Shown here piece by piece: positions 3,000-52,300 of a stretch of DNA of 64,000 bases (positions within the stretch are counted from its first letter, which is position 1; each line of letters starts with the position of its first letter). The translations under genes and the position numbers were made by a program. The notes under the pieces were generated by a model that made no database searches, had not been told where the DNA came from, and worked only from the letters and a program-made list of their open reading frames with translations. This stretch comes from Lytechinus pictus. Taxonomy: Eukaryota. The stretch lies in assembly GCF_037042905.1 (NCBI RefSeq), contig NC_087245.1, positions 13,580,001 to 13,644,000 on the forward strand, in the 5' to 3' direction.

Positions 3000-3033
<34 letters not shown>

Positions 3034-17300: not shown

Positions 17301-20300
17301 GATTTGCCTGCGGGTGCCGCGTTTGTATACACCATAGGCAGCACCCCTTGGAAATCAAAAGGTGGTATTTTAACCAAAATCACCTTCATTTTGGAGTAAA
17401 ACCTCCATTTTCGTTCCCAAACCGGCACCCCCTATTAAAAAATCGTTCCCATGGCCCCGCTCGCATGTAGGCAAAAGTTATAGACATGGTGAATTAAAAA
17501 AGATACCAGCTTTGTTATTTTGTATGGATCTTTCCCAAATTGAAGTTGGTCTCTTGTCTCATTACTTCTATCCTTTCTATTATTGAAACCAATTTGAAGC
17601 CATGGTTGACTTCCTCTTCAAGGTTCAATGAAGACCGATATGAGTTCTTTTTCAGAATGATGTCTTTATATCAGGTCTCGAATTCAATAGCCTATTCAAT
17701 TGGCTATTGAATTCTAGACCTAATTATTTTGAAAATAATTAATATTCTGTAGTTTATTTTCATTCGTATTTATTTATTTGATTTTATATTTTCCACTCGT
17801 GGGCTGAATGGCCCTCTTCAGCCACAGGCTATTCTTCTGAGGGGTCCAGTACACATACATTTAAAAATACAAACATACAGTACTAAAAAACAAATACATA
17901 TTTAAAAGATGCATTAATCGACAAAAGTAAAACATATAAGTAATCCTAGACGATGCTGAGGTAGGACCTCAACTTCTACAAGTATGAAAAAATGAAAAAA
18001 ATAGTTGGATTGGAGATGATGGGGGAGGGGTAGCATGCAGTAGGGGGGGTAATCATAATAAGTGCTGATCTATGGTGGTACTTAGCTTTTTTCTAAAGGT
18101 AGTAAGAGAAGCTTCAGGACGGATATATGTAGGCTATACTTGTTCCATAACTTTCCGCCTTGAAACAAGAAACGTTTTATGCCATATTCAGTTTTGGGGC
18201 AGTGTATCATAATTTTGCACATGCGTCTTGAATTTACAGATCTTTAATAGTCCCCATTTTAACAAAATGAGCGCACTGCGATTCATATGTCAACTGCGGT
18301 AAAGTATATTTTATCATATTCTCATAGTCGTAAGGTGAGAAATATATTTAGCTAAATGAGAAATCAATTACCTAAATTTGACGTAATCCTCTCATCCTCA
18401 AAATGTTATCGTGATATAGAATATATATGTAAAACTAATCTTAGGGAAAATTAAATAAAAAGGAAGTGGTTTTTTATTTCAGGAGTATTTATGGTGTGCA
18501 TGGGCAGTGTCCAAAACACACGTATGAATATAATTACAGCAGATATATGTAAGTTTATTTATTTCAATTCAATGTGTAAAAAAATTATCATGAAATATTT
18601 GCCTCAAATTATGTAAATTATGCCGAAGATCGTGATGATTTATAACACTGTGTTTGTCATATCGGTTATGCAAACGAATATGTGCAGGGAAAATGTTCGT
18701 TTTTAAATATTGTTTGCAATAGATTAGTCAGCCCACCTTGACCCTTTGAAACATCCACCTAAAGGGCCCTACTTAAAGCAGATACGAACCAATAGGCATC
18801 TCGAGTCCTCAACTACTCATACCTGGCCACTTTCCTGACCCATAATGATAGTGTAGACTAGTAATATAGACCCACTTGAATGATAACATGCTAATTAACT
18901 AATCAATACATTTATACCGCAATAATCATGTTACCAAGTAGCAAAACAATTACTTTTCTTCTCTAAATATTTTAGTATCTCTATCCAAATACAATTACAT
19001 AATTTATTCTCTGTAGTATTAGTAGATATCTGAAAACGTATATTTTCAGACTATGTATTTATGACACACAGTCAATGAAAGACCACACACAGTTCACTCC
19101 CCTTTAAAATCTATAAAACACATAACTCTATTATTCTCTGATTGATTTGAAGAAAGAAACTTTCTTCTTTTTTTAAATAAAAAAACCCAGCTTACAGCCG
19201 AGATTAACTTCATCCAATAAAAATCAAACTTACGCCAAAGATACTCATCACCGTCAACTTTTTGCGGGGTCGACTGGGTTAAGATGTTATCCATGTACAT
19301 GGCATAGCGAACTGAAGAAGCGGGTAGACCTGAGGCAAACATGTATTCTTCTATTTCCGCTTTTCCGTCAAAGTGAGGACATGGCTTCCCAATGGCCTTC
19401 TTGACTGACTGTAGGCCACTAAAGACAAAATGCTTCACGCCTACTTTCCTGGCAACGTCGACCATGTTTTTGCCCTGGATAAACAGATGATTCGAGTTGA
19501 ACATTACATGACGAATTCACTCTGATTTCAAGAAGAAACACATTATGAAGGTTTTATGAAAATGCATCATAGAATAAAGGAATTATAGATTTGTTATTTT
19601 TTTTGACGTCACATTCCATAAAAATCTATTTTATTAGAATATCATTAAATGAAACTAGTCGTGCATTCAATATTACATCAGCCACACTTTTCATACTCTT
19701 CTATGATAACATTGTCATTCATCATGAACATTTCTAAATGTAGATATAGCTTTGTATTGTGCAGCTGTCTGCATGTGACGTCACGGAATAAAAACTTATA
19801 AAACGATCATTACTCTTTTTTCCTGTGATGTATTTTCGTCTAACCTTCATTAATGTTGTTGTTCTGTTTTCAAATTAAAACCAATCTGATTTCAGGATGT
19901 AGGATGGATCCCCCTTAATATAATAAGCGCTTGAATATTACACTGAAATAAAACATTACTTATAAATATGACAAATGCGTTTCCTAAAATAATAACGCTC
20001 AGCAAGACATCGAGATGAATTTCAAACGTCAATATTTATAATTCCATCCAACATGTCCAAAGGATGCTTCAAATCTATTGATTTCATATATAAATCACAG
20101 ATGAAAAAAAAAAGACAGTGATTTTCTCAGATGATGAGAAGTATACAGGCCCTGTTGAATAGTTCATTAGATATTGGCAGGTACCTATAAACATGATGAA
20201 TTTATGTCTTTAGTTCATCCTTGAAGATCCTTAGAAATTTGTACCATATTGTGTAGTTGTGTTGTCCCTTAGAATATGTTATTCAGATGTACTTTTTATC

Positions 20301-21689
20301 GAAATGCACCTCACGTACCATTTCAACTTCTTTTGCCTGGTCCATCAATTCCCAATAGCTTGTCATGGCAAAGACACCGTAACTTCCCGCCATAGCAGGT
20401 TCCAAAGAAGATACATCTTCAGTCGAGGCTTTCACCATTTCAACCCCTATAATAATAATAATCATAGAAATATCTAAATATATGCGCTGCCAAAAAATAT
20501 GGCCATTAACTTGCATGCTTGATTGTGAACAGTTGAAGATGTTCTTATCAGTTCCGAACATTTTTCAAAGTCATGAAATCTTTCAATAATTCTTCAGGTC
20601 TACGAGTTTCTCAATATTTTTTTCAAATGGCAATATCGGGCTACCACAAGGAATGTTCGCAGACTATTTGTAACAATATATCTGTTTTTATTTTATTCCC
20701 ATTATTGAACATTGAATAATAGTTGTTAAAAGTCAGATATTTCGAGGAAATTCGTGTTTTAGGGTCTTATGTCCTTCGAAGTTGTACTTTAATTTTGTTT
20801 TCTATTCGGACCAACTAGGATTAATTCCTCATTTTATACAAGAATATACAAGATACAAAACTCTAATTGCATATACTAATTTTCTACAGTTGGCCTAATG
20901 AATTTATTGGAGAGTAGATTTAGGAAATCAACGTTATCAAATCCATGCTCCTCCTTCTTTCAAGGTTTTCGGTTATATTAATGTTTATATCCACATATAA
21001 ACTATTAAGTAAATGTAGGATATAATAAACAAATATATCAGGCTTTCGCCCCTCGGGAAAAATAGTAATTACCACACCAACCTCTGATAAATAATTATTC
21101 CACTATACTTTCTCAAAGCCTGATATATATGTTCAATGTAGTATATATATGCATTTATGTAGTGAAGTCGTGCAGTATCTCTCTGAAGATGGCGCGAAAG
21201 GTCACTATAATTATATATGATATATTTGTAATGCAAGCGGGTAATGCGGTAAAGTGAACAATGGTGCATTTCGAAGTGCATACAGACATGACTGATGTAA
21301 GTGGAATTTCGATACAAATATTTCGACATAGCCACACTACATCATATATAGAGATGATGAATATAATTTTCTTCCTCATGTTGCAGGCTAGGTTGGAGAT
21401 TCATCTGAACAATTGAAATGACACTAGAAAAGAATGAGAGTAAATGGGACAGCAGTTAATATGGCCACATCCATCATCAACCGCCAGATGCAGCACGATC
21501 TAACTCGTGTCAAAAGTAGCATCGAACACATTACTTCTGTTTACCTTTTTGGGCTAGGGCTCTAGCCTTCTCGCTATCCACATTTCTTGTGATTCCTCGA
21601 ACCTTAAAGTTACTGTCCTGAAGAAGTGCCCTAACCAGAGAACCTCCTTGCGTTCCTGTGGCTCCAAATACGGTGATCAATTTCGCCAT
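14305..21689 (-). CDS. NMRAL1: NmrA-like family protein, paralog B; 6 exons (21689-21545, 20446-20319, 19474-19234, 16870-16775, 15816-15719, 14508-14305), 303 aa
   Basis: The N-terminus MAKLITVFGATGTQGGSLVRALL carries the Rossmann GxxGxxG; VRGITRN, HFDGKAEIEEY and YMDN motifs follow. Canonical splice sites; the spliced CDS is 912 nt and in frame. Confidence 0.93.
16085..16251. mobile_element. Palindromic MITE with ~55-bp TIRs
   Basis: CTCAGTCACATTTGCTCTATGGCGGCC...GTCGAAAACAG pairs with CTGTTTTCGAC...GGCCGCCATAGAGCAAATGTGGCTGAG. Confidence 0.8.
17760..18240 (-). mobile_element. 3' end fragment of a CR1/L2-group LINE
   Basis: - strand translation FQGGKLWN...SLTTFRKKL is typical of the RT C-terminus, followed by a 3' stem-loop and an A-rich tail. 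Confidence 0.6.
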
Positions 21690-23733: not shown

Positions 23734-24410
23734 CTCGGTTTTGTATTTTTTCTTCATTTGTTCTTGTTCTATAAATATCGATAAATCTTCGTAGGCTATT
23801 GGGGTGAGGTGGGTTCACATTACACAAGCAAAGTTTGGAATGAACCCCCACCCACACACACATATTTCTACAGTTAGTATTTATTTTTATTTATCCTTTG
23901 TATAACAAAATTGACTACAAAAAATATTCTAAGTTACATCAAATTTCTTGAAAAGTTAAAAATCATATATATCATTGAATATATGTATTGATTTATGGAA
24001 TCAAATTTTACTATATTTTCTGTTTTGAAATGAAGTCGAATTTGAATTGGGAAGCGCTTACTAAATATCTAATTCTAGGAAATAAACTCCGGAAATAACC
24101 ATCTAGTATATTACTTAACAGTGGCATAATGACCCAAACATTTTGAGGGGGCCAGATATGGCGTATCGGGCAAAAATTACGACATTTTTTTACTACAAAA
24201 ATCAAATTTATGAATAGATTTTTTTGGGGGTGGGCAAGTGCCCCAAGCCCCCTTGTCTGACACGAATCTATAATCACGTACCTTGGAATGTACAATACGT
24301 ACAACGAATATTCTAAAAATATAGTATAATATGAAGGTTAGTATGATAAACTTATACACCCATAAACCGAATAAAACAAATAAATAACACACACATAAAC
24401 AAGTTTTATT

Positions 24411-27400
24411 TTATTTCAATACTGCCAATATTTTTTCCTTGTTGTCTTTTACAAAAGCTTGGAAGTCGAAGGTCTTTGAATCAAGTCTCTTTGTCTCCTC
24501 CCTGCTGTAACATGGATGTTCGGTTTGAAAAAATTCAAACATGACGCCCAAATCGTCCGCTGCGGGGAATGGCATCTGGGAAAACTCTTTTGCCGTCATC
24601 TGTTGTTAGAAGAACAAAACAAGATTTTACCTCGATGACAATATAAAATAATTATAATTCAAACAAAAATACATAGGGCCTAATATAGTGAGGGTGTGTG
24701 TGCGGTTGCAGGGTGTGTGTCTAAGTGTGAGTGTAGTTTACTACAAGCGCAAATCCTTATTTAATCTGGGACCGACCTTAAACGTCATCAACGGAACGAA
24801 ATAAAGCATGCCTCTATTTTCTTCTATTCAATTCAATTCATTTAATTTTTCGTTTTCAATACTTCATATTTACAATATCAATTCAATGTTCATGCAGTTT
24901 ATTGACCTGTATCAAACTCCCGACTTCTACGTACGTGGTGACAAACTCTTAAGTCAATAGGAAACTTTATTGAAAACATGACCATGAATGATGACGGAGG
25001 ACAAAGAGAGGACGGAAGACTCGATAAAAATATATCTGCGCATGCTATGTTCTTAATTTCCTTAAGTGCATAGAAATGTTTGTAGAATCTTCCTCCTTCT
25101 TTGCCTTTCGTCTTGCTTTTTGAATATTTCTAGTACCTGGGTTGGCGAAACGTGAACAGATTCTGCTTCAAGAATAGCATTGAGAATATCACAGTATTGT
25201 GACATGGTCTTTCTGTCGCCTGATAATCCAACACTTTTACCTGGAAAGAAATAGTACGTGAAATGATTTGTGCGATTGTGATCATCAATCGATTAATACC
25301 CGGTATGAGATTATATTCCTTTCAGAAGGGAGCCCATACGACCATCATGCATGTTATATAAAACGAGGAACAAAAGTGTGTCATTGTTCACTTGAGTTAT
25401 TCATATAAACTTGATTTTTTATTAGGCATTTTCGTTTTTGATTATCTCATTTGATCCCCAGTTAAAGTGATATCAAATCATACTCTCTGCCCATTGAAAC
25501 GGAGCCATGTAAACATTTCTTCTTTGAGGATAATGAGATTTAAGTAATTCATGCGCTGCGCAAAATGATCTATTTACGTCACATTGCGTCAGTTTCATAT
25601 TTTTATATTATGTAAATGATTGCATCTTTTTTCTTTCTAATTTGATTTTTCTTTTCTTATTGTTTGTCTTATTTTGTTCAGATCTTCCCCAGTTTCTTTC
25701 AGATAACTTTGCTTCATCTTACCGATATACTGATCAGGATTCTTAAAGATAGCCGCTACTGCACGTCCAGCCTCACCGGCATATATCATGTCTACTGCCT
25801 TGTTTTCCATGGGAACATCTGCATAAGTAGTATATAAATTATATAGGGTATAAGTAGTATAGATATTAGGCAATTTTCGCAACCGCTCCGGAAAATGCTT
25901 TTAAGAAAAAGAAAATGTATTGTAAAATAACTTTCATGAGAAAGAGCAACTAAGAACAGCAGTTTCGTCCTTAGGAGCGTTTCATGGAAGGATTTGTCAG
26001 ACGTTCTAACCGACAAGTCCTGTCTGGTCCGGCAGTTATCATGGTAACTGTGCTTCTCAGCCAATCAAAATCAAGGAAAGTTGTCAAAGCTGACATCCTG
26101 TCGGACATATATGTTAATAAAACGCTCACCTGGACTCTGAACAAACGACAAATTTGCAACTTTTCGTCAGCTGCAAAACTAAGGACGCAACCATTTTTCC
26201 GGTTCACTAATTTTCAACAAAGACCTCCCAGCTTTTAATTATCATTATATTGTATATGGAGATTTTCAATACATTTGCCGTGTTCTTGATTCGATCTGCG
26301 TCGCCGTTGCGAAAAATCGCTGAAGTCTCATATCAGTGGCGTACCGTGGGTCACGACATGGGGGAGCAGCAAAAGTTTTGAGTCACTTAGTGAGCGGGAG
26401 AAGCGCGCTCACTTGCCAGATATACCGACCTAATATAGACATTTTAAAGACAGTGCCTTAAACAGATATGTATCTCACTGATCAAAAAATGCAATTTTTT
26501 TATATTCAGACCTAAAAAGGGATATAAGAAGCAAATTTTGTAATCACGATACTTACCTATCTCGCTAAACAAACAATGCGAGCTCCAAACAGGGACATTT
26601 TAAGGACTATATTTTAGGAATCCACAAAGAGTATGTCATATATCATGCACCATAGTCATCTAATGCGAGTGCCAAGCGCTTGCCGACTTTGTTAGAATTA
26701 CATCTAAACACATGAAGCACTTTTTGTAGTTATTGTAATCATAATTATCATACGCATCTCACTAATCAAATATTCAGATCTGAAGAGGGGCTTTCTAAGG
26801 CTTGTTGGTAGGAATTCACTTAGACCATACGTATTTCACTAACCAAATGATGCGATCGCGAAAAAGGAACATTTTAAGGACTGATTTTAGGAACTCATGA
26901 AGAGCAGACATATCTCACCAATCCACGCGAACGTAAGCACGGACAGGAAATGTTTTATATTAAGACCTTAAAATGGGGCAGTCACTTTTATAGTCATGAA
27001 AAAGAAGCATATGCCACTACGTAAAACAATGATAACTCGAAGTGCGAAGAAATATATTTGGTGTTTTTTACTTGAAAACGGGAGGTTTTAGTACAACAGG
27101 ATTATATATCTCGTTAAACAGACAATGCGAGTACCGGGAACAATGAAGACATAGGCCCTGAGCAAATTACATTTCATAAAGTTATGAAAAAAATGTTTCT
27201 AATGTAATATAACATAACAAAATTATAATATAACATTACAATGAACAATAATTTCTTCTTTCCCACTACGTTTCTCTTTTTGTCTCCCTCTTTTTCTCCT
27301 TTCCCCCGTTTTCCCTCCAGCCGATTGGGGAGGGGGGCACGTGCCCCCAAGCCCTTCCCCCCCCCCCGTAGTTACGTCACTGGTCTCATATAGATAAGCA

Positions 27401-30400
27401 ATAATCAGAAAATAAGGCCCACTGTGTTAGTATAAAAAATACGGCCCAATAAGTTGGTGTCATTCTCCACCGCTAAATTTTCATGAATGTTTAATACAGC
27501 TATATGGTATTTTCTTTTAAATGCTGAAGAAAATATTAAATGCTGATCGCCTAGCAAGAAGGCAGGATTTTTCTTTTTTTTAGTCTTTGGTATGACTCGG
27601 CCAGTAAATTGCCAATTCGTCTACTGCCAACTTGTCCACTCACCGAATTGTCTAGTTTCATTTAGTCAAATGCCACTCCGTCCATCAACATCACGACCAT
27701 TTGGATCAATAACCATTTGGGCCAATCATCATTTCGTCTCATAACCAGTTGGTCTATTTTTATTCATTTTGCACAATTAACACTAAGTAAAATTAGACCA
27801 AATGGTACATAGACTTAATGGCTATTGGACCAACTGGTTATTAAACGAAATGGTGAGTGGTCGAATTTGCAATTAGACCATGTGGATAGTGGACAGACTG
27901 ATGGTAGACCAAATGATAGTAGACGATCTGACAATTGGACGAATTGGCATTAGACGAATTTAAAATAAACCACTCGGTCGGAGATCGAACCGAACGTTCA
28001 TGAGGCGGGAGCTCTACCACTAAGAGAAAAGTTTACAGCTTTACAGACGCAAAGATTCGTCCATTATGTATCTTATGCATAAAATCCCGGGTCATATATC
28101 CGCGTCTGTTGGTGCCATACCCCTATCCGCGTAAAAATGAACTGAAATAAGGAATGACCTTATTTATTCTTACATACATATAAAAAAAAATGCGGTACAG
28201 CAAAGGTATGTAACTCCAAAAGATTATACTTACTCCAAACAAACTCGCCATCCGCGACTTTTTGTGGGGTCAGTGCAGCCCAGATATTATCCATGTACAT
28301 GGCATAGCGAACTGAAGAAGCAGGTAGACCTGATGCAAACATGTATTCTTCTACTTCCGCTTTTCCTTCTAAGTGAGGACATGGCTTCCCAATGGCCTTC
28401 TTGACTGACTGTAGGCCACTAAAGACAAAATGCTTCACGCCTACTTTCCTGGCAACGTCGACCATGTTTTTACCCTGGACGACGAGTTAACAAAACATGT
28501 TTGAATTACTTGAATGTCATTAAAAAAATAAGATTCTAGTATATTTTTTACCTAAATGAATATCGTTGAATAACTAATTTAGAAAACAACACCCATAAAA
28601 TTCTAGTCGATCCTTCCACCGGTCGTGGAACAAGATTAAATTTATTGGAACTTATTTCACATAATTTAATGCAATTAGCATTGTTTGAAATCTAAAGAAT
28701 GTAAGGGAAAGTATAGTCCAATCAGGACTTATTCTGGTTATGATTTTGTGTTAATTGCCCATATTGGCAAAAAGAATTAAAAGCGAACTTCATTTGGCAA
28801 AGGAATGTCCGTACGTCAAGATAAAAGCAAATCATATGAATAGTGAGAGAACATTCATATACTCTTCGCAAATAGTGTGCTTAGAGAGTCCGATGTTCTT
28901 CCCTTATTTGTAACCTTCAAGAATACTTGGAATAAATCTAAATCATAAAGAGAGCGCCCATAGTCATAAGAAAAGTCCATCAAGTCCTATGAAGCCCATC
29001 TGCAAGTAACTTCCAAGCATTACAAGTTTGATTTACAGCAATATAAACACTGAGTCTCTCATTCAATATTGATGCTCTTATAATTCATCTTACCATCTCA
29101 GTTTCTTTTGCTTGGTCCATCAATTCCCAGTAATTTGTCACAGCAAAGACACCGTAGCTCCCCTCCATGGCTTTCTCTAAAGAAGCGGCATCATCCATTG
29201 AGGCTTTCACCATTTCGACACCTTTAGAAATTCGAAAATGATAAAAGAAATAAATACACACATTTCCATACGACATAACCTTACATACCCACAAACTTTT
29301 ATTAGGAAAACAAGAATTCTTTTTATTTCATCGATTATAGAAAAACAGGCGGAAGGGCCTAGTGCCTTGTAAAATAAATGAATACATGAATGAGGCGTAA
29401 TCTTTGTCACAAAATCTGACATTAGTATTGTTATCATGCCCCTCTTCTGCGTCTTTCCCAATATTTGGCCCAAAACGCCTACAATGACTTAAACTGTATG
29501 CAATCATAAAAGATAGGGGTAATGCATTTCAGGTGAGCACGCGTGATCCAAGTGTGGAAGGTTCGAGCCCTGGTCACGTCTTTCGGATGGTGACGTTGAA
29601 GGTCTTTCCCAAATTTAAATAATCATATCTGATTGTCTGAATTACACAAATTTATCACGAGAAATTCTCGCATCTTTTAAAACCTATCCTTCCCCATAAT
29701 AGGTTTTTAACCTAGCTTGGCGAAAAAATAATTTGACAGTAAAGTATTCAATGATAAAATTTAAGCTTTTGGTAAGATTATGCGAATTCAGGTTTTAAAT
29801 AAATACTATTACCCCCCCCCCGAATGTCCCCCATGATCGAATTCCTGTTTTTAATACATGTAAATAGAGTATTAATAAATTAGGGCCTCAGTGGGAGAAT
29901 TGAAATAAGAAAGTTTATATCTTAAAAGGTGAAAATAAAAAATAATGATTTAAGGCGAAAACGATGATACTTGAAAGTTTTATGACTTTGATTTTTGGTT
30001 CAATATGACGATCGAGTTCTCCCCTCCCCCTCAAGGAATAGAAAGCGTGGGCGGATCGACATCCATGGATTTGAATATGAATAGGAAACCATGACAACCA
30101 AAGTCAACAATTTCTCTGAACACTCGACCTCCATGATGAAACCTCTATATTTGCGCGGTGACATTTCCCGCCGTAATCATCACCTTTTCATGATATGAAT
30201 CTTTGGAATGTCACATAAGCCCCCATACGTGATTGCGTGAAAATCATTAAGTAAAACTTCATCTTACCTTGTTGAGCAAGAGTTTTTGCCTTTTCGCTCT
30301 CCACATTTCTAGTGATTCCTCGAACTTTATAGCTGCCGTCCTGAAGAAGTGCCCTAACCAGAGAACCTCCTTGTATTCCCGTGGCCCCAAATACAGTGAT

Positions 30401-30412
30401 CAATTTCGCCAT
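24411..30412 (-). CDS. NMRAL1: NmrA-like family protein, paralog C; 6 exons (30412-30268, 29221-29094, 28474-28234, 25818-25723, 25240-25137, 24599-24411), 300 aa
   Basis: MAKLITVFGATGIQGGSLVRALLQDG...HLEGKAEVEEY...FPAADDLGVMFEFF. Same intron positions as B, canonical splice sites, spliced CDS 903 nt in frame. The stop codon overlaps AATAAA. Confidence 0.93.
24757..24798 (-). mobile_element. 3' fragment of the same SINE family
   Basis: TTATTTAATCTGGGACCGACCTTAAACGTCATC (+ strand) matches 38945-38979; GT-rich tail sequence lies adjacent. Confidence 0.55.
25972..26131. mobile_element. Small Harbinger-like MITE
   Basis: Imperfect TIR AGGAGCGTTTCAT / ATAAAACGCTCACCT; internal palindrome CAGTTATCATGGTAACTG. 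Confidence 0.5.
26334..27382. mobile_element. Non-autonomous hAT-like element with a 9-bp TSD
   Basis: TIR CAGTGGCGTA / TACGTCACTG; GTCTCATAT at 26325-26333 and 27383-27391. Confidence 0.85.
27603..27971. mobile_element. Palindromic MITE built of short tandem units, inserted in a decayed tRNA-SINE
   Basis: TGCCAATTCGTCTA / TAGACGAATTGGCA arms; ACTCGG(C/T)C on both flanks; GATCGAACC and CTCTACCACT SINE-head remnants to the right. Confidence 0.65.
29532..29650 (+). mobile_element. Degraded copy of the 7SL-headed SINE in intron 1 of paralog C
   Basis: Shares ATCCAAG, AGGTTCGAGCCCTGGTCACGTCTTTCGGATGGTGACGTT and TAAATAATCATATCTGATTG with the 38899-39070 copy. Confidence 0.75.
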
Positions 30413-38517: not shown

Positions 38518-41500
38518 TACTACTACTACGTACTACTACTACTACTCTTGCTACTATTATTATCATCGTCATCATCATCATCAATTTTAACATTATAGTG
38601 TCAATGAGACTTTAGGTTTTTATGTAAGATTTTCCTCTACCCAGCCAGATTCATTCGGCATGGAAAGTCAAAGTACCATTATAATTTATTGATTTAATTT
38701 GATTTGAATTGACTTACACAATCATGTACTTTACGATTTTGCTAATGATAATGGACGTTGGATTGTTTTTCTTCAAAATATCTAATTATAATACTGTATT
38801 TGGTTTCTAATGCTATATGATTCAATATTGTTGCTTCAAGATCCAAACATACTCAATGAACTTTTTAATACTACATACCTTGGACTGGATGCTGACAGCG
38901 TGTGTGTATTTGAGTTGTGTCAGACGTGTATCAATCAGATATGATTATTTACGTCTGGGACCGACCTTTAACGTCACCATCCGAAAGACGTGACCAGGAC
39001 TCGAACCTCTGCATCGATTTTGTAACTTCCCCACATAGCTTGGATTACAGGCGCACGCCACAACGCCCAGAGAGTGACCGTCCTTTTTAAATACACCGTA
39101 ATGTAAATGTAAATTAAACCACTTGCGAACATAATTATGGGTGGGGCCAAAAAGGTTTCACGTATAAGAAAAAAATGAGAAAAAATGGAAAAAGAAAGAG
39201 AAAATGTTGAAATACGATATCACTTTCTAAATTTCAAAATATTTCACAATCATTTTTGTTGTAAAAAGGTCAAAAGTTTTGCTCGTTCGCTTTGCTTACT
39301 CGCAGAATTTAGACATTTTATTTCATACGCTATATTTTATTTCATACCTAAGGAAATACACAATATAGTCTACTTCTATTATCTCTCCTAAGCCAGAATG
39401 ACAGTGCATATGGAACAAATCTGTTTTCCTTGGACCCTATATACATGTAGGAATCTCCAAATAGTGGAGAGATCAGCTAAGAGAGAGATCTACTGGCCCC
39501 TCAATATTTTTGGTTCATTATACGTTATTGATTGAACCTACTTGTACTGATGGTGGAACTTGTATGATCTTGAACTCATAACTTACTCGGAAGCAATTGT
39601 AATGACTACATTTATATATGTTCAATAATATCGATCTCTTGTGGCAGATGGACTCAGAAACGAGAAAGATCTTTAAGGCATTTCACAGGGTACTGTACTC
39701 TATCCACTGATGTTCTTGTTGTTCATCAAGGACTTTCCAGACAATCTTTGCAGATCTGCAAATCTTTTTTTATTACGATTTTCATAAACGGCTGCTTCTG
39801 ATGAGACTTACAAAGTTTAGCATTCAAGGTCTTGGTCCGGGCTGAAAATATTTATATATAAATAAATAGAGTAAAATTCAAAGAGCAAAATGCTGAAAAT
39901 TTCATAAAAATCGGATAACAAATAACGAAGTTATTGAATTTTAAATTTTATCAATATTTTGTGAAAACAATTATATGCACATCGTCAGGAATATTCATTA
40001 GATGGGCTGATGATGTCACGTCCCCACTTTCCTTTTTCTTATGTTATTTATTTCAGTTTTATTTACGCAGGGTAGCCCTTTCAGTTATAGAACTGATTTA
40101 CAAAGAGGCCCTGTTATTACATGAAATCACAAATGTTTCATTTTTTCATTCATGTGTAAATGATGTGTCTCCATTATGATGAAATAAGTTGCGACAATAA
40201 ATAACTAATGAACCTAATCAGTTGTCAACCATTTAGTTCTTGGTAGCAAAATTTTTAATAAACCTTATTTCATATAATATATACAAAAGAACAAGTGGGG
40301 ATATGAAATCATCAACCCACCTAATGAATATTCATGAAGACATGCCAAGAACTGTTTCACAGGAATAATGCAAATCTTTAAATTCAACAACTTTGTTATT
40401 TGTAATCCGATTTTGATCAAATTTTCAGCATTTTGCTCTGTTAATTTTACTCTATTTAATAAGATATAAATATTTCCAGCCTGGACCATCCCTTTAATCA
40501 ACTTGAAGACTGGTAGAACTGATCGAGCTATATAGGTCTTTCAATACAAATGTTTTGTCGTCAAGAAAAGGGTCCATCAAACTTTCTGCAGGTTATATCT
40601 TCAAGAAGTTAGCTCTCATTCCTATGACCTACAGTTTAATGTGGACTTCTGCAACAAGTAGAGATATGACTCTCATTCCAGGATATTTACCTCTGAAACC
40701 GATAAGATGACTGGCTTGCTGAGAAAGTGGAAGAAGCTATATAGTTTTTAAGATCCTTGCCATGGTAATAATGATGATAGTAGTGATAATAAGAACAACA
40801 ATAATAACAATAGTAATAATGATATGATGGTGATTCTCTATGGCCCTCTTCCTTATTATTTACTAACGAGCTCCGCGGAAGAGTATTCGACTGTCATTTG
40901 TTATGTATTAAAAAAAATCATTTGCTAAGGACCAATAAACATTAAGTGCTGTTATTTGGTAAAGGGATTCGCTACTTTCTAACCCAAGTAATCTCAAACC
41001 ATTATACCAACAAGTCCTTTGCTCTATATATGATGTACATATAGTTAGTGGTTTGACTTCCATTCTGACCAATTGCGAGTTAACATTATATGAATATATA
41101 TGGACTATCTTAATATTCACATCACGCTTTAAGCAAGTTATATAATAAACTACTTTACAATTTGAATAAAATGGCAGTAAGGCTTAACATTTGCAAGTCC
41201 TGAAAAACAAGGAAATCATGAATAAAAATAATATTTACATCGCATCGTTACATATCAGAGGCGGATCAAGGATTTCCCAAGGGGGGGGGGGTGCATTTCT
41301 GTTCAGAAACAAAGGTCTTCACTCCCGATTAATGGTGGTTTATGTAAGCATGCATGACATTTTCCATTAACAATATTTTATTTGGCTCTCAAGGGGGGTC
41401 ACTGGCCGAATATGCCCCTACCTGGTCCCGTCACTGTTACATGATAGTATTTTACTTCCTCTACCGTTTCTTCGTCTCTTTCTATTCTCTACAACTTCCT

Positions 41501-43307
41501 CTTATGAAGTCAGATGATGACTCTATCTAGCATATGTATTTGAACCTGATGAATGGATGACTTCTCGTGTTTTATTTGATTTTCTTTACTCATATTAACT
41601 TATTCTAAAATGAATTCGTCATCCTTATCAAGGATTAGAGTTGTTATTTAATATTTTGTTCATCTTAAATTAAGTGTCAATTTACAATATTGTGAATAAA
41701 CGTCAATTCATTGTAGCATCCAAACATTGGTTTGGAACTTTTGTAAAGCAATATTAATCAGTGATAAGTGTAGGCCCCCCGACATGTTTGAAATTTTCAG
41801 TTTCCCATTGCAGCGTGGAGCGTTGTGGCCCAGTGGATTAGTCTTCTGACTTTGAAATAGAGGGTCGTGGGTTCGAATCCCAGCCATTGCGTAATTTCCC
41901 GGGGTAATTTCCTCAGCAAGAAATTTATCCACATTGTGCTGCACTCAACCCAGGTGAGGTGAACGTGGGTACCCGGCAGGATTAATTCCTCGAATACAAT
42001 ATGAGCGGTGAAAGGCAGCTCGAGCTAAAGCCGGGGTAATGATAATAATAACAACGCGCCTTGGAATAGAATATTTCTAGGTAGATGGCGCTATATAAAT
42101 GTATATTATTATTATTATTATCATTATTATCATTAGTATTATTATCATTATTATTATTATTATTATCATTATTATTAGTATGTATATATACATGTATACA
42201 TGTACCTTCGCAATGTGTTATTCTTCTACAAGTTTCCCCAAATCATGTTAGAAGATCAATAGTCCACTACACATGGATTGGATTGTATAAATAAACATAA
42301 TGATATCAAATACAAACTTATTCTGGAAAATTTTATATTTCTTAATCAAACACACAGACAAGCTCTTCGACAAATAGTGAGAAAAAAAAATGAAGAAATC
42401 CTTTACCGTTGAACCTTTACGTGACGTCACAATAACTTCACGGTACAGGTATTACCTCATTTATTCCTCCTGTTCCTAAACAACACTCAATGTGGGTCTA
42501 CAATACCTTACACTATTGTACACTACTGCACGCTTGGCAAAACAGAAATGTGGGTTAAATACAAACACTTTATAAGATAATATTTCATGATATATAAGCT
42601 CTTATTTTTCACAAACACATCTCATGTGTATGCGGGCTCTAATTAAAAGGCAATGGGAGATATATTGTATTTTATTGGTATGAATTTGAGAGCAAATTAG
42701 CGTATTCCATATGCAGTATAAAAAAAAAAGGGGGGGGGCACCTTCGTCACATTTGGTATTTCAGGTAACTGAAATGTCTTTCATGAAAACTTGCTGTTCA
42801 CATTTTTCGATATTCATGAACAATCGAAGTATTCACATTTCTCTCTATGCTCCTATAAAAAAAAATATGTAGCTACTCTAAGCTCCACCATCTATCCATG
42901 TAATACATCACTAAGAGGTTTTTTAAAAGATTTTTTTTGGGGGGTCAAAACATAATTTTAGATTTTATCATTACATCCATTCAAAACGAAAGATTCAACA
43001 TTCGAAGAGCCAAGAAATGTATAAGATAAAAACGTTATTATATCCAAATGAAAACAAAGTATACGAATAAATTTAATATTACATTATTCTGAGCTATCTT
43101 GAAATGTACAGTATATATGACAATAATAATGGTAATGATGGTAATGGTAATAATAGTAATAGTAATAATAATGATGATAATAATTCTAAAAGTAGTAGTA
43201 GCCGTAGTAGAAGAAGAAGAAGAAGTAGCAGTAGTAGTAGTAGTAGTAGTAGAAGTAGTAGTAGTAGTAGAAGAAGAAGTAGCAGTAGTAGTATACATGT
43301 AGTAGTG

Positions 43308-43390
<83 letters not shown>

Positions 43391-46300
43391 AGTAGTAGTA
43401 GTAGATGACAATGATAATGATTATAATAGTAAAGCGTTCAAGGAAGACAATAATCTTTTTAAAAAAAGTACCCTGTACCATAATTCATGTTTCCAAAAGT
43501 CATTATTCAAATATAAATTATATTTCCCTGTAAAAAAAAAATAACTTTTTATGTCAAATATCGAATTGATAAAAAGTTTGTTTACATGTACATGGTGCAG
43601 TTTACGTGCTTTGGACCGCTGTATGACGTCTTCGTGTAAAACTAAAAAAAAATCGGCTATATTGTTTGTTCGACAATCGCTTGAATACATTTTGGAAAAT
43701 TGTTTTAAAAAAAATGTACTCCCAAAAGTACAACGGAGTAACACAGAGACCAGCATAATGTAAAGTATGTGCTGACAGACAGTTAACTAGATAGCGAAAT
43801 AGATACCTATACATGTAGATAGATAGACAGACAGACATATAAATAGATAGAAGGATAGAAGGATAGAGAGTTTCATTCAATTTTCTTCATCTCATCCTTC
43901 CTTTCCACTCCCTCTCTTTCCTTTTTCCTTCTCTCTTTTTTTTTTCTTTATTTTTTTGCGCTGCCAGTGGGGGGAGGGGGGGGGGGGCCACTTCGCCCCC
44001 TGGATCCGCCTATAGATAGAGTACATGTATATGGACACTTACAGCGTAACAAATATCTTCGTCTTTTGCAACTTTATGATCTTATATTTAGAAACCATCA
44101 TTATAATTCTAAACAAATTTAATGCTCAATCCTTGTTTATTTGTGTTCCCTTTTGCCGATTTTTTAAAATTATTCTATAGTGTTATTCGAAATTATGTAA
44201 ATACTTACCAAAAAAGTTTTAAAATCCAATCGTTACAGACATGAGATGATTTTTCGATTTCTTTTAAGTGTTATGGTATATTCCAATGACTTGTAAGACA
44301 TTATGCTATTGTCTCATCAATACATGCTTTCCAATGTCATTGCATTGGCGTAAACAGGGTAATAGGGAATGAAAGACGTGTATATCCTACTACACTTTTC
44401 AATAGAAGTTCTGAAATATAATAGCAATGCAGGGGAATATTTAAAAGGGGGACAGAAAAGAAAAAAAAAAGGAAAATGAACAGGTTTATACTTGCAGGGA
44501 CAAACAGTGTATGTTTGTAAAATGGGGAGGGTGGGCCTGTCCTCTGTACCCCCATCTGCACAATCGTGTATAAATCAGTAAGACAACCTGAGTTGCAATT
44601 TATACAACGGTTCAATATTTATTTGATATTGGGATTGAATTGATGGGATTACGATGGAATTTTCTTTATTATTTGATTTTGATTATTAGGGAAAATATAG
44701 CCTATAAAAAAAAAATCACATTTGCACGACTGTTATAAGGTACATGTATATCAACTCTGCAATGCCGAGTCTGCATTATGCATCTCGACATTCCAAAATT
44801 TGAATATTAAAAGCAAATCATCACATTCCGAGCATATTTTAAGACCGGTGCATTGATATTTCATTCCGTATGAACCAAATCACTCTGAGAATTAAAAGAG
44901 TGAACCATGACCCCTTGACAAATATTTCGTAAAACATCAAAGAGCTTTGCTTCCGAAGAACCGTGTGTATAGCGTATTCTGTATGAACGAATTCAAAAAG
45001 ATAATGGTATTTGAAAAACTGAGCAATATCGGGACCAGATTTCCGCCGCCTGTCCAACTGAGGAGTCTCTAGGTTGCATGTCATTGCACCGCTCCCGTCT
45101 CTTAACATAATTTTTACGCGTTCTTAAAGTCAGATTTTTTTTTAAATGTATAAGAATATGCACAATAAAGTTATTTAATTCTATTATATTTTGGATTCGT
45201 CCTGATGGAAATACAAAACAATCCAAATCCAACCCTCATCAGGTAATTTCCTTATGAAATAGAAAGATGCTTATTTTATAAACCAAAATTTGTTATAGAA
45301 TTTTATCATGATAATTATGGTTCTTGTATTTCTTATGATAAAAACCAATTTGAAATATTTTTTTTTTTTTTTTTGTAATTCATGTTTTATTGATCCTTTT
45401 CATCAAAATATACATAACAAAACATACATGATATAATGGATCACATATAAAAGTTCAGATGACGTTGGCATATAAAATAACATGTCTAACATACAGAATA
45501 GTATATAATAAAAAAAAAACATATGTTTGTATACAACAACACAAAAAAAAATCAGGCACTTGGCCTATATAAAAAAATAAATAAACATAACAAAAACAGC
45601 CTTCTGCTTTATCGCCTCTTTAAAGTATTCAGAATGATAGCCCACTTGCCATCATGTTTTTCTAATTTGCATTTCCTTTGTGCTATGGTATGTTCAACAG
45701 TTTCAAATGATAAAAGAAAGTTACAAAAATGGGGGAGAGTAGGTTTTGTTTCGTCACATCGACATCTAAAAATATATTGTTTACCTGACAGGAGCAGAAA
45801 GTTCAATATAAATATATATCTGGGAATTTGGGGCTTACAAATACCAAAAAGAACATATCTTTCTGAGAGGAAATCAGGAAGATCTAGTGAAGCAAAAAGT
45901 GTACCAACATTATTCCAAAATTGGTTAACAACATGGCAAGAATAAAAAAGATGCACTAGAGTTTCTGGTGATACTTTACAAAATGTACAAAGTGTATCAG
46001 TTACCTTGTTAATACGGAATAACCAAACCTTAGTAGGAATCAAATTATTAATAATCTTGAAATGTAAAGCTCGAAGTCTCGTATCTATAGTAGTACGTAG
46101 AGGTAGTTTTAAGAGTTCTCTTACTTCTTCTTGTTGAAACCCATAAGTGTCTTTTAAACGTGTAAATATATTCGAAATTGATGGGTTATTTTCATTCATA
46201 AAAAATGTGTAAAAAATATACTTTGGTACACCCGTTACTTCTCTAGTGATGCCATCAATAGTTAAAGTTGGAATCAATGAAATGTTGTCGACAATGGGAT

Positions 46301-49300
46301 GAAAGTTTTGAGATAGAAAAAATACTTTCCATTTTGATGGCATAAACTTGTAACAATCAAGAAGCAAAAAGTATTCAACAAATGTTAAGCCTTTATTTTT
46401 GGCATCTTTCCATCTTAATGGTCTGCCATACTCATCCAACATATGTGACACTTTAACAAAACCTTTGTTTTTTATCTCTGGCTTATAAAAAGATTTTCCA
46501 TTTTGTAATATGCATCTATTATTCCATAGCATTTGGTTACATATTTTTATGTTTTTTTGAAATACTGTGCTCCAACTAAGCATGACATCTTTATACCATT
46601 CAGGAATTGTCAGGTTTAAAATATTAAGATCATAATTACAATGGAATATAAAGTCACCACCTACATTTTGAAGCAGTGTTAACAGGATAATCTTCCATCC
46701 CTTTGAATTGGATGTAAAAACTCTTTGTATCCACTTGACTTTTTGCACTTGTAGAAGAGATTTTAAGCATATCATTTTGAGCCCCCCATCTTCATACTGC
46801 TTAACAAGTATCTCCCTTTTGATCCTGTCAGGGCCGTTCCAAATGAACCCAAAAACTAACTTATTAACTTCTTTTATATAATAATCTGGGATTTTTGACA
46901 AACTTGCAAGGTAAAGTAATTGCGAAAAGGCAAAGGTTTTGACAATTTGTATTTTGCCTATTAAAGATAAATGACGAGATTTCCATAAATTCAACTGTAC
47001 TCTAATTTTATCAAGTGTTCTTTGCAATTGTAAAGAAAAAACATTGGGTGAATAAGCTATATCTACCCCAAGAATTGTCAAAGACTTCTCAAACTGGATA
47101 TTCTCTAGTGAATGTTGATTATCTTTACAGGCTCCTATCCACATTGCCTTTGTTTTGAAAATATTGATAGAGAGTGATGATTCCTTTCGGAAATTCTGAA
47201 GTGTATTCAAAAGGTGTCTAAATGAAATATTGTCTGAAAGGAAAACCGTTATGTCGTCTGCATACAGCGACAATTTCAATTCTAAATTGTCCGATATTTT
47301 TAAACCATGTATTGTCTTGTTTTCACGAATATTTATGGCAAATGTCTCTATAGCTAAAACAAATAAATAAGGACTCAATGGGTCTCCCTGCCTAACACCT
47401 CTTTCAACGGGAAAATAACCCGATGACAGACCCCGATTCATTACCGCGCTTTCTAAATTGGTATATAAAACTTTAATAAAGTTACAAAATCCTTCTCCAA
47501 AATTGAATGATCGGAGGACGTTCAACAAAAAAGAATGGTCTAGTGAATCGAATGCCTTTTGGAAATCCAAACTTAATAATATTCCGGGAATATTTTTCAA
47601 GTCGGAAAAGAAAAGAGCATCTTTAACTGTCCTGACAGCTTCTCCAATAAATCTGTCCTTTATAAATGCTACCTGATCGGGGTGAATCAAATCAGGCAGA
47701 ACTTTCTTTAATCTTTCTGCAAGAGCTTTAGAACCAATTTTCAAATCAACATTCACTAGAGTGATGGGTCGGTAATTTTCGATTAACATTTTGTCTTTCC
47801 CTTTCTTTGATATGAGTGTAATTAAACCTTGTCTTTGTGAACTAGAAAGTTGACCTTGTTGAAAACTGTAGTTAAGATTATCTACCAAAAGCTGTCCAAT
47901 TTTACCCCAGAACTTGCGATAGAATTCAACCGTTAGACCGTCGTTTCCCGGTGACTTATTTTTTGACATAAGTAATAGGGATGATGTACATTCCTCTAAC
48001 GTTAACGGCAAGTCACATTTACTCTTGGAGTCCGAGGATAACTTTGGAATATTTTCTTGTCCTAAGAATAAGGAGTTTTGCCTCGAGTCGACATTAGGCT
48101 TTTTATATAATTGTGTATAGAATGATTTTATTTCTGAATTAATATTTTTCATATCTGTAAGTATACAATCGCCTTGCTTAAGTTTAAAAATTGACGATTT
48201 ATTTTTGTGGCCTTTTTCTAAATTAAGAAAAAATTTAGTATTTTTCTCCCCAAATTCCATCCAATTTGCTTTAGACCTTAATATGATGCCTTGTGTTATA
48301 TAATCTAAATAAGACTCATATTCTCTTTCAATCTTTTTATATTCCTCAGCATGCCTTTCACCCTCGGAATCCAACAGAAATTGCAACCTTTTTAGCCTGT
48401 TTTCCAGTTCTCTTCGCCTTTCTTTCCTTTTCCGTGCCTTTTCAATACTGTATTTACGTGAAAATAGGCGAATATTATACTTGAGAAATTCCCAACCTAT
48501 TCTCATATCATCAAATTGTGAAATATCTTTAATCCACAGATCTAAATTTTTCGTCATTTCAGAACAAAACACTTCATCCTCGCATAGGGTGTTATTAAAT
48601 TTCCAATTCATAGCATTACATCTTGTTTCTTCTTGTACTTTAAATTCTAAAATAATAGCCAAATGATCAGAACCCACTCCGGGTATCATATCTACCTTGC
48701 TGATATAATCCTGCAGGGTCTCGGAGACAAACCAAATATCTAATCTACTTTGGATTAAAGGCCGCAATTGTTTCCAAGTATATTTACGCGTGATGGGGTT
48801 ACGTACACGCCATATATCAATGACATCTAAATCACTCTGTAATTTTTTAAGTTGACTGATTACTGCCTGCGAGGTTGTTGGATGACCACCTTGTCTGTCA
48901 ACATTCATGTTTAAAATCACATTAAAATCGCCCCCAATTAATAGAGGAGTAGTCCCAATATCATCAAAAGAATTTAAGGTACATAATAAATGGTCAAAAA
49001 ATATTTTTTGTTCACGTTTCTTATCAGCTGTTGGTGCATAAACGTTACAAATTATAAATTCATTGCCGTCTATAATAATTCTTAAAACCAAATATCTACC
49101 ATTACCTGAAACATGTTTAGAAATGATTTTATAATCTAGTTTTGAATTGATAAGTATCATGACCCCACTACTATGAGGAGATCCGTGACAAAAGAGTACA
49201 TCACTGCCCCATTCCGAAGACCAACTACTTTCTACGTCTTCTGAACTATATGTTTCTTGTAGGAGAGCAATGTCGATTTCTTTTTCTCGTAACCAACCAA

Positions 49301-52300
49301 ATACCTTTTGCCTCCGAAACCCTGATCTTAGACCTCTCACATTCAAAGACAAAAACTTCATGCTCGTTTCTTTAAAACCCATAGCAAGGTATCATATCTG
49401 TAACTTTGATATACATGTACCAATCCACAAACACATACATGTAACCGTGCATCCCACATGTACATGTACTTATGACAGGTGTCAGATGTATTGCTTTGGC
49501 TTGCACCTGTAACATATAGAAGCCTAAATATAACTTTCCACTGTTGCAAACACCATTCCTAAGTACCGTTACTATAAAGACTAATGTAAATTTCAAAATT
49601 GTACATTGAGCAACTGCCCTAACAGTAGTTGTTTTCCAACACTTGGAATTTGTTTTGCTTTCAGCTGACGCAAGAGAACTATAAAAAGAACATCTTTGGC
49701 AAAGGCAAACTATGTACATAGAAACAATATACAAAGAAAATTTAAATGTGTAACACTTGTACACGAACAAATACATTGATAAATGTGAAAAAATTAAGAC
49801 ACGTCTGACTGATCGAATGCTAGACATGAGGAACATGTCAAAGACATGAAACCTTAAAGGAGCTAACAAACCCACCCTTTAACATGTTTACAAAATTCAC
49901 GAATATTACTGGAGGGAGAAACCACAATGGTCAATGTGGCAGAAAAAAAAATAAAAAATTCTATTCAATGCAGTATATAGGGCAAATAAATATCAGTATA
50001 AAAACAACTGATCAAAAGTTGTGTGTTCATTTCCAATGTCAATAGCACTTTGTGTTCAATAAAATAAATGAACTTGAATTTTGTTCTCTGTAATTGTAAA
50101 CGAAATGAAGATCGAGAATGCAAGACCGCTATTCTTTATGTATTTCCCATTTCTGGGTTCCTTTTTCTCTGTAGAAGAGGACCACTTTCGCTCTAACAAC
50201 CGTTATTTTAGTAGACAGCTTCTTTTCTTTTCTCAACTTGTATGCAACTTTGGCCAACTCACTGCGTGTTGCCTTCAGTGCTGGAGGCAAGTCTGTTCTC
50301 ACTGTAAGCCTAGATGTTTCTTGTGTAACAGGTGGGTATCTCCATTCGACTCCTGTGGTGTTTCCAGTCGAAGCATCTGTGGCGACTCTCTTCTTGTAAG
50401 CTCGCTCTTCGAACGCAGCTAAGACTCGATTACGTTGTGACATATAGACAAACTTGGCTATGATAGGATGGGGGACACCTTCTTGTGAGTGGCGTTGGGG
50501 TAGCCTATGCACATTGATAAGGCAAACGGCCTCCGCTTCCTCTTTGCTCAAACCAAGTAGAGTAAAAACATGGCGAATCACGACATAGACATTTTCTCCT
50601 TGCTCCATTTTGACCCCGTAGAATAAGAGATTATTCTTCCTCTGGTATATCTCTGATTCGATGAGCTTTGTACGAAGTTGATCAACCTCCTTCCTTAGGT
50701 CGCTTTCAATCTGAGGAAGCTTCTCTTTCTCGATAATATCGACCTTCGATGCATTAAAATCAACTGCTGCTTCTAAGTCATCCACTTTCGTCTTGATCTG
50801 ATCCAAATTGTGTTGTAAACCATCTAATTTTGCACAGACTCTAACTTCAGATTCCCGTATAGAGCGCATAACATCTGCGAGCGTGAATGCACTCTCCGGT
50901 TCACCCGTGCCCTCCGGCGTTGGTGTACTGGTTTGTGCCGTTGACGTTGACGGTGTAGATTGTTTGGTGCGTTGGCCCTCGGACCAACGCACCTCGGACC
51001 AACGTTCCGTATGAACCAAATCACTCTGAGAATTAAAAGAGTGAACCATGACCCCTTGACAAATAGAGCTTTGCTTCTGAAGAACCGTGTGTATAGCGTA
51101 TTCTGTATGAACGAATTCAAAAAGATAATGGTATTTGAAAAACTGAGCAATATCGGGACCAGATTTCCGCCGCCTGTCCAACTGAGGAGTCTCTAGGTTG
51201 CATGTCATTGCACCGCTCCCGTCTCTTAACATAATTTTTACGCGTTCTTAAAGTCAGATTTTTTTTTAAATGTATAAGAATATGCACAATAAAGTTATTT
51301 AATTCTATTATATTTTGGATTCGTCCTGATGGAAATACAAAACAATCCAAATCCAACCCTCATCAGGTAATTTCCTTATGAAATAGAAAGATGCTTATTT
51401 TATAAACCAAAATTTGTTATAGAATTTTATCATGATAATTATGGTTCTTGTATTTCTTATGATAAAAACCAATTTGAAATATTTTTGCTGCATGATGCAG
51501 AATCTCCCAAAATGGCAATTTCCTTGTGTGTAAAGATCGATACAAATGTGACGTCATTCGAACTTTGGCAACTTTGGAGGCAGGGTAGATAATCGCCTCA
51601 CATAATTTACCCTTCAGAGCTGAAACAGACGTGTTGTGTTGCCACTGCTCATTCGGCCAGGTGGAGGCCTATGACTATTGCATGAAAATATGTATTTTCT
51701 TCGTATCAATAGAAAGACACGTCGAAGAGTTGAAAAGATATTTCACGCTCTACGAGTTCAACAATATATGCCCTTCTCTCTGTGAACCACACGGTTCGGG
51801 CGGTGAGGTATACCACGCCCTACGTAATTACTCCTCGCATGTAGACTATAACAAATCTATAATTTCTATAAGTCACATAAAGTTTTGGGAGATTAAAAAA
51901 ACTTAAATGCAAAAAAAAAAAAATATCCAGACCAAGAAAAGTTACACAAGTGACATGGTTTAACAACTGATTGGGCACATAAATAACACCTCATTGTAAT
52001 ATTAAGAAACCATTTAATTATAAAGCTCGGTGCTTGTTAACCTGTTAATCTACAAAATTTCATTTATGAGAAACGATGGTTTCTTCTAACATGTCTGGAA
52101 GCTATCAAGGACCAACCTGACATGCTGGTTAAACATAAAAAACATATTAGGATATACATGTATATACACGTTATTCTTTTTTCTCGACTGCATGTGAATA
52201 GGCCTATATTATTATTTATGTTTTGCTCAGGCCTCCATGAATTCCTGTGCTAAAATTTTTTGTTGATATGTGACACTAGTATACTATTATTTTCGAACAT

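Follow-up and report, generated by a model that had tools for sequence, protein, structure and literature searches.

Results

A SINE Copy and Other Features of the Window

The window analyzed in this work is a 64,000-nt stretch of Lytechinus pictus contig NC_087245.1. It contains three NmrA-like paralogues, the third of which has the two worn SINE pieces in its introns (Table 1). NmrA-like exons at 24.4-30.4 kb are 97-100% identical to a Lytechinus pictus protein, and the neighboring paralogue is 70-98% identical to an L. variegatus protein. The window also carries an L1/Tx1-like LINE with a poly(A) tail, a 1,260-residue open ORF2 (endonuclease, RT, and zf-RVT) and a 372-residue upstream ORF; a tRNA-headed SINE with an (ATT)n tail and a presumably CORE-like body, from a group with 3,439 promoter-pattern sites; and a long inverted repeat with weak microRNA-model scores that is probably a small inverted-repeat element. 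ARAGORN called no tRNA genes in the whole window, and Rfam models gave six weak matches across it, none reaching the cut-off.

A profile of the SINE family detected three members in the window (206, 75, and 25 bits). The best of them is a copy composed of a 7SL-derived head, a tRNA-His-derived segment with a pol III B box, a short core, and a LINE-derived tail. An earlier note on this DNA, made from the letters alone, had described this element, and its head at 39070-39036 (-) and its core motif are present where it had put them. The extent it gave (38899..39070, about 170 bp) is corrected to 39071-38900 (172 nt). The B box lies at 39007-38997 (-) as claimed, but most family copies read GGTTCGAGCCC instead of the "perfect" box. 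The (CA)n tail was correctly located but amounts only to (AC)4. The two further members that were claimed are real but worn, with new bounds: the plus-strand copy has a partly deleted head and a decayed 3' end, and the other is a headless fragment. RNA folding of the whole element was no better than that of shuffles (z 0.44).

Table 1. Positions of the SINE copy, its modules, related elements, and other features (positions are those of the window unless a locus is named).
Feature	Position	Strand	Remarks
Whole SINE copy	39071-38900	-	172 nt, 206 bits vs family profile
7SL-derived head, 7SL nt 1-47 (5' Alu domain)	39025..39071	-	nt 4-30 identity; shuffles; Rfam SRP match
A-box position	39057-39066	-	7SL numbering of PMC7245038
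tRNA-His-derived segment	38989..39024	-	last 20 nt 19/20 vs host tRNA-His(GTG)
Pol III B box	38997-39007	-	inside tRNA-His-derived segment
Short core, like 5' end of Deu/Nin domain	38958..38990	-	26/33 columns vs AmnSINE1_HS
LINE-derived 3' tail	38910..38956	-	37/47 identical to L311 LINE 3' end
Two-stem hairpin in 3' tail	38956-38922	-	same predicted fold as LINE end
(AC)4 tail	38900..38907	-	window copy
Worn family member	29544..29640	+	75 bits (family profile); 92% over 77 nt
Headless fragment, core and tail start	24736..24800	-	25 bits, E 5.6e-7; 84% over 44 nt
NmrA-like paralogue, first	1097-5064	+	
NmrA-like paralogue, second	14311-21689	-	
NmrA-like paralogue, third	24402-30412	-	holds both worn SINE pieces in introns
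Long inverted repeat	16077-16256		
tRNA-headed SINE	41815-42160	+	(ATT)n tail
LINE, L1/Tx1-like	45609-51247	-	poly(A) tail
Insertion site shared by SINE and LINE	L016, L050		satellite-like repeat
Insertion site shared by SINE and LINE	L017 (SINE/LINE pair with L349)		second repeat, identical flank
Insertion site shared by SINE and LINE	L107 vs L283 and L289		third repeat, seen separately

The Head Comes From the 7SL RNA of the Host

The host genome has seven full 7SL genes (272-283 bits). Positions 4-30 of the SINE are identical in five SINE copies and four host 7SL genes, and the similarity runs to nt 47, the end of the closing helix of the 5' Alu domain. Against host 7SL, none of 2,000 shuffles scored as high as the first 47 nt (p 0.0005, the lowest value that this test can give), and the U3-A45 pair of the SINE, in place of the usual C-G, is common to one 7SL paralogue (L037). 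The Rfam model Metazoa_SRP matches 39004-39071 over the head at 24.6 bits, below its 70-bit cut-off, with an E value of 0.021 in the window search and 0.00013 in a 401-base search. No similarity to the 7SL 3' end (nt 251 to end) was detected anywhere in the SINE (p 0.66-0.97). The 7SL origin proposed in the earlier note is thus borne out by the species' own genes, which the head matches across nt 1-47. A tRNA does not explain the head better: nt 1-47 show no similarity to host tRNA-Lys (p 0.58-0.87). The 5' part of the family therefore derives from 7SL RNA, as in SINE1 elements, whereas the tRNA-derived 5' end of SINE2 elements is absent, tRNA-His accounting only for nt 47 onward.

This head is a property of the family. 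Among 55 exact core sites on contig C1, 33 have an exact head, 14 a mismatched or start-clipped head, and 8 are 5'-truncated; none of the 55 has another head type. Conversely, all 19 head sites without an exact core run on into the family body. Full-length copies begin at 7SL +1 (A in 68/95). A weak Rfam match of the head to the Alu-derived mir-1268 model might suggest human or rodent Alu/B1 contamination or horizontal transfer, but the head is identical to the 7SL of the host over nt 4-30, matches to the remaining modules come from host tRNA-His and a host LINE, and copies are carried by many chromosome-scale contigs. We consider such a foreign source to have a negligible probability.

When the head was scored with the pairing scheme of the Rfam structure line of the SRP match, the elements that make up the SRP9/14 site (helices 2-4, the UGUAA turn, and the GGC/GCU loop-loop triplet) were all intact in 69 of 90 scorable copies (5/95 were unscorable). 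The common subfamilies all keep the three helices and the loop-loop triplet, and they differ in the second loop. The base-pairing is almost wholly inherited from 7SL, so that it gives no sign of independent selection on the head within the SINE.

The 7SL genes themselves show two further features. Six of the seven (L031-L036) carry a consensus B box about 20-45 nt past the terminator, +318 to +342 from the start, which in three genes lies in a perfect T-arm-like hairpin; L037, the paralogue closest to the SINE head, is without it. The usual internal B-box position of the 7SL genes is degenerate, and the downstream box may be an extragenic promoter element; our literature search found no paper on it. 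A same-orientation SINE ends about 35 nt upstream of each of the clustered genes L031, L035, and L036 (G000:C10:7.91-7.92 Mb), probably a single insertion that was duplicated along with the gene.

The B Box Lies in a tRNA-His Segment

In early tests the source of the segment behind the head was ambiguous, the candidates being 7SL nt 48-92, tRNA-Lys, and an element that lies downstream of the 7SL genes. Its last 20 nt match host tRNA-His(GTG) at 20/20 positions in copy L040, at 19/20 in the window copy, and at 18/20 in L038 and L046, vs 11-16/20 for seven other host tRNA types; this comparison covers these seven types, part of the host tRNA set, and the search was a directed one that started from a guess. 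The tandem tRNA-His(GTG) arrays used here were found with a pattern built to exclude the SINE. A long form of the SINE, counted by motif in 28/95 copies, has a 7-nt stretch in this segment that the window copy is without. It aligns gap-free to tRNA-His nt 27-69 with 26-30/43 identities (shuffle p 0.0002-0.0006), and the alignment starts at the very base where the 7SL similarity ends.

Identity to tRNA-His is only about 45% over the first 24 nt of this segment, and SINE nt 48-90 are weakly colinear with 7SL nt 48-92 (p 0.008-0.09), as expected if the first 90 nt all came from 7SL and the B box had drifted to consensus as in Alu. The perfect tRNA-His match over 20 nt and the ungapped register over 43 nt argue against this, as does the drop in 7SL identity from 100% at nt 4-30 to about half beyond nt 47, and we rate an all-7SL origin as very unlikely. 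Two other sources of the B box were tried and rejected: a tRNA-Arg source gave 0 sites, and the B-box element downstream of the 7SL genes matched weakly (p 0.002-0.03) and was superseded by tRNA-His. The Rfam tRNA model gave no match on the middle segment.

The B box of Alu, B1, Tu, Urop, and Ebu1-1 is that of 7SL, unlike the B box here, which sits in a segment matching tRNA-His at 18-20/20 positions. Since the B box comes from tRNA-His, the head region is a 7SL/tRNA hybrid without the 3' strand of the Alu domain. Our inference is that the long form came first, with the 7SL domain in the place of tRNA nt 1-26. The B box is present in 82/95 copies, and an internal TTTT in 3/95.

Nine identical bases occur in the anticodon arm of host tRNA-His (L335:1451-1522) and at 7SL nt 6-14 (window 39058-39066), and these bases also open the commonest tRNA-type SINE of the genome; they may have helped template switching. 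The tandem tRNA-His array has a period of about 160 nt and some GCG anticodons (L335-L336, G000:C11:6.69 Mb); tRNA-Lys also forms a tandem array (L173-L200, G000:C4:9.70-9.74 Mb).

A Short Deu-Like Core

The likeness to the Deu domain noted earlier holds for the 33-nt core: 26 columns, counted by eye, match the AmnSINE1_HS row in Fig. S4 of PMC7245038, including a 12-nt exact run (binomial P about 1e-9 before correcting for search), this being one published alignment in which only the first ~33 nt of the domain match. As the Deu/Nin central domains of described members span 70-330 nt in the available text of PMC4824008, the core appears to be a remnant.

Searches for a tRNA-headed parent gave 0 sites with the canonical Deu-core motif, 0 sites with a motif from two worn fragments, and 2 sites with an A box plus core pattern, both of them family copies; a profile search of 0.82 Mb found neither a tRNA-headed parent nor a sister family. 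The common tRNA/CORE-type SINEs (3,439 A-box/B-box sites) were rejected as relatives, since at 36 loci they had neither the core nor the tail in common with the family.

The 3' Hairpin Is Shared With a LINE

Searching with a profile of the SINE body also brought up a second repeat, which has the same hairpin at its 3' end and a tail of (AAC)n. Its 3' motif has 212 sites; among 30 examined, many are 5'-truncated at differing points and two have RNase H motifs upstream. Locus L311 holds a near full-length but frameshifted LINE whose ORF1 has a zinc knuckle and which also carries endonuclease, RT, and RNase H domains, and eight places are at least 88% identical to its RT piece, one of them with a 1,125-residue open frame. 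A sister LINE family (63-65%) encodes an ORF2 of 1,239 residues and has a hairpin related to this one. The RNase H and zinc-knuckle scores are below the Pfam cut-offs in L311 and L349 and above them in L353 of the sister family. An ORF1 with zinc knuckles and an ORF2 with endonuclease, RT, and RNase H is the layout of the I group. By this domain layout, the partner is in all likelihood an I-group LINE.

The last 47 nt of SINE copy L004 are identical to the L311 LINE end at 38/47 positions (E 1.8e-7), the only strong match in 8 kb, and the window copy has one identity fewer (Table 1). Over the 35-nt hairpin, SINE and LINE differ by six substitutions, five of them in stems, with pairing kept in all: four form two compensatory pairs and one retains a wobble pair, the sixth being unpaired. 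A candidate has thus been found for the LINE that the earlier note supposed the SINE to exploit. The two tails differ, (AC)n in the SINE and (AAC)n in the LINE, and identity over the shared part reaches only 81%, so a related family may be the one that now serves as partner. No LINE end identical to the SINE tail was present among 21 tail matches in 20 regions, and a tail pattern built to exclude the SINE gave 88 sites, mostly SINE variants.

SINE and LINE ends also occur at the same base in three different host repeats (Table 1). When 110 distinct SINE 3' junctions were compared with 19 LINE junctions, four had a match; one of the four entered via the LINE search and is therefore not independent, and the control for this count, which used a loose pattern, is weak. 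In L309 and L353 a SINE copy lies directly behind a LINE tail. Instead of the poly(A) tail and L1 partner of Alu, B1, and Urop, the family has an (AC)n tail and a hairpin common to an RNase H LINE; by eye, the poly(A)-tailed LINE of the window has no SINE-like 3' end. One of the three host repeats, a satellite-like repeat of ~110-nt units (L016, L050, L154, L271, L281-L310, L351, and L362), has been hit repeatedly, always at one position in the unit, by the SINE and by three or more related LINE families.

Copy Number, Age, and Insertion Marks

The window copy is one of about 1,300-1,600 copies of a young SINE family in the Lytechinus genome, a moderate number rather than the high copy number claimed earlier. 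In 812 Mb, exact patterns hit the head 735 times, a figure that includes the 7SL genes, and the core 808 times, and a tail pattern with up to one mismatch found 1,268 sites genome-wide; reversed control patterns gave 0 sites. Capture-recapture on contig C1 (52 head, 55 core, and 33 with both) scales up to ~1,600 copies. A first BLAST gave 1,587 candidates, 40 of which were scored, and 48 evenly chosen 10-kb pieces contained one full copy and one fragment. The 95 independent copies have a median identity of 96% to one young copy, but the sample leans young because copies were chosen by similarity.

Target-site duplications of at least 6 bp flank 25/95 copies vs a mean of 2.2 (maximum 8) in shuffled pairings, and those of at least 10 bp flank 7/95 vs 0.0 in the control, the longest being 17 bp; the remaining 70, the window copy among them, are without a duplication of at least 6 bp. 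Together with 5'-truncated copies and variable repeat tails, these are the marks of LINE-driven insertion. The 95 copies remained from 163 full-length hits once tandem neighbors, repeat fetches, and shared flanks were removed, and some copies and dimers sit inside larger repeated units, which could mean that copies spread chiefly as passengers of other repeats or segmental duplications. The 95 unrelated flanks, the duplications, the truncations, and the variable tails point to retroposition of the SINE itself and make the passenger explanation highly improbable. Copies are spread over many chromosome-scale contigs.

Head-to-tail SINE arrays were observed in L013, L039-L044, L051-L055, and L261, and a SINE dimer sits inside a larger repeated unit on several contigs.

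Discussion

Comparison With Known SINEs

The literature comparison draws on the available portions of PMC7245038, PMC13023118, PMC11760393, PMC10886601, PMC3531059, PMC4824008, PMC4758252, PMC11481361, PMC4494074, and PMC3747384. SINEBase describes a SINE as short (<1 kb), interspersed, and present in at least 100 copies, with an identity of 60% or more to tRNA, 5S, or 7SL across a stretch of 60 nt or longer (PMC3531059). The sea urchin family has a length of 172 nt and 735-1,268 pattern sites, and 44-48 of its first 61 columns match host 7SL, mainly via nt 1-47. The family is genuine, is of SINE1 type, and has a new architecture, and it arose independently, as the earlier note proposed.

An Alu-like SINE was reportedly found in amphioxus in 2006; the available parts of the later literature on 7SL-derived SINEs do not count it. 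There, 7SL-derived SINEs are limited to supraprimates, hagfish, and shrew mole, with three origins, all vertebrate and all by nearly the same central deletion (PMC13023118, 2026), and the known families all retain both 7SL ends. The sea urchin family has no such central deletion with both ends kept. By title and abstract start, we found no paper on a 7SL-derived SINE in an echinoderm and, in the papers covered, no earlier description of this family as a SINE1.

The closest parallel is hagfish SINE1-1_EBu (Ebu1-1; Kojima, 2020, PMC7245038), which likewise placed an independent 7SL head on an older tRNA-type SINE and has a non-L1 partner, a microsatellite tail, and ~2,400 copies. Ebu1-1 keeps 7SL nt 1-96 with the 7SL B box, as well as the 7SL 3' end, and has an RTE partner via a bipartite tail, whereas the sea urchin family retains only 7SL nt 1-47, draws its B box from tRNA-His, and continues with a Deu-like core and a hairpin tail of the I-group kind. 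Alu, B1, Tu, and Urop also place the 7SL 5' Alu domain first and have internal pol III boxes, but they differ in the central deletion that keeps both 7SL ends, in poly(A), and in L1; the left unit of tree-shrew Tu, of possible dual 7SL/tRNA origin, is the nearest precedent for the hybrid head (PMC13023118). DeuSINE/Nin-DC elements (AmnSINE1, SINE3-1, and sea urchin SINE2-3_SP) resemble the family at the 5' end of the core, and head swapping is known among them, with 5S rRNA added to a tRNA head; their cores are 70-330 nt and their heads tRNA or 5S, in contrast to the ~33-nt core of the 7SL-headed family, and the sea urchin SINEs listed have tRNA heads and CR1/L2 partners (PMC4824008, PMC4758252, and PMC3747384). 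Nimb/I-partnered mollusc SINEs have, as here, a 3' end of 35-61 nt with 72-95% identity to an I-superfamily LINE, but tRNA heads and V or Meta cores (PMC11481361 and PMC4758252). The minimal Alu construct SA46/AY46 (Moldovan et al., preprint PMC11760393) has the same 46-47-nt 5' domain; it is an engineered RNA with a pol II promoter, poly(A), and L1, whereas the sea urchin family is natural.

Origin, Mechanism, and the Role of the Head

The element is almost certainly composed of a 7SL 5' domain, a tRNA-His piece, a Deu-like core, and a LINE 3' hairpin, and this composition together with LINE-driven retroposition is very probable. A tRNA-His/Deu SINE would have lost its first 26 bases, the A-box half, to the 7SL 5' domain, probably via template switching. 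Transcription by pol III would then start from the 7SL A box and the tRNA B box, the head may fold into an SRP9/14 site that parks the RNA on ribosomes, and the LINE ORF2 protein would recognize the 3' hairpin, as in other stringent pairs (PMC3747384), with target-primed reverse transcription beginning in the (AC)n tail.

The intact fold of the head and a preprint on the 46-nt 5' Alu domain suggest that the head binds SRP9/14. According to the available text of that preprint, the 46-nt domain binds SRP9/14 and supports retrotransposition in HeLa cells at 73-86% of Alu activity (PMC11760393). By analogy, we lean slightly toward a functional use of SRP9/14 by the head.

The main rival explanation is that the 7SL head merely donated an A box and a 5' end, SRP9/14 binding being incidental and the LINE hairpin alone ensuring copying. 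The head replaces exactly the tRNA half bearing the A box, the family lacks the 3' strand of this domain, which Alu, B1, Tu, Urop, and Ebu1-1 retain as part of the Alu domain (PMC13023118), the second loop varies among subfamilies, and LINEs with a shared 3' hairpin recognize their RNA directly (PMC3747384). On the other hand, the junction coincides with the final base (nt 47) of the closed 5' domain and lies far beyond the A box (nt 6-15); the three helices and the loop-loop triplet are kept in all common subfamilies; and the searches turned up no tRNA-headed relative, an outcome to be expected had the new head been advantageous. The A-box explanation is thus plausible but rather doubtful. 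The reading in which the head does dock the RNA is of a natural "mini-Alu", the first invertebrate 7SL SINE, with a 47-nt SRP9/14-binding domain, a tRNA-His B box, and SRP9/14 ribosome docking despite LINE hairpin recognition; as a whole we put it forward tentatively, at not quite even chances.

The family would be a fourth origin of 7SL-derived SINEs, outside vertebrates, by head replacement at the boundary of the SRP9/14-binding domain. Since its B box comes from elsewhere and its LINE would recognize the hairpin, it separates the two proposed jobs of 7SL, promoter and ribosome docking. If the mini-Alu reading is true, ribosome docking would be a general, repeatedly invented aid to SINEs that needs neither the 7SL 3' strand nor the L1 poly(A) route. 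With a candidate for the partner LINE present in this genome, and Lytechinus being a laboratory genus of sea urchins, the reason for the success of 7SL heads can be put to a direct test.
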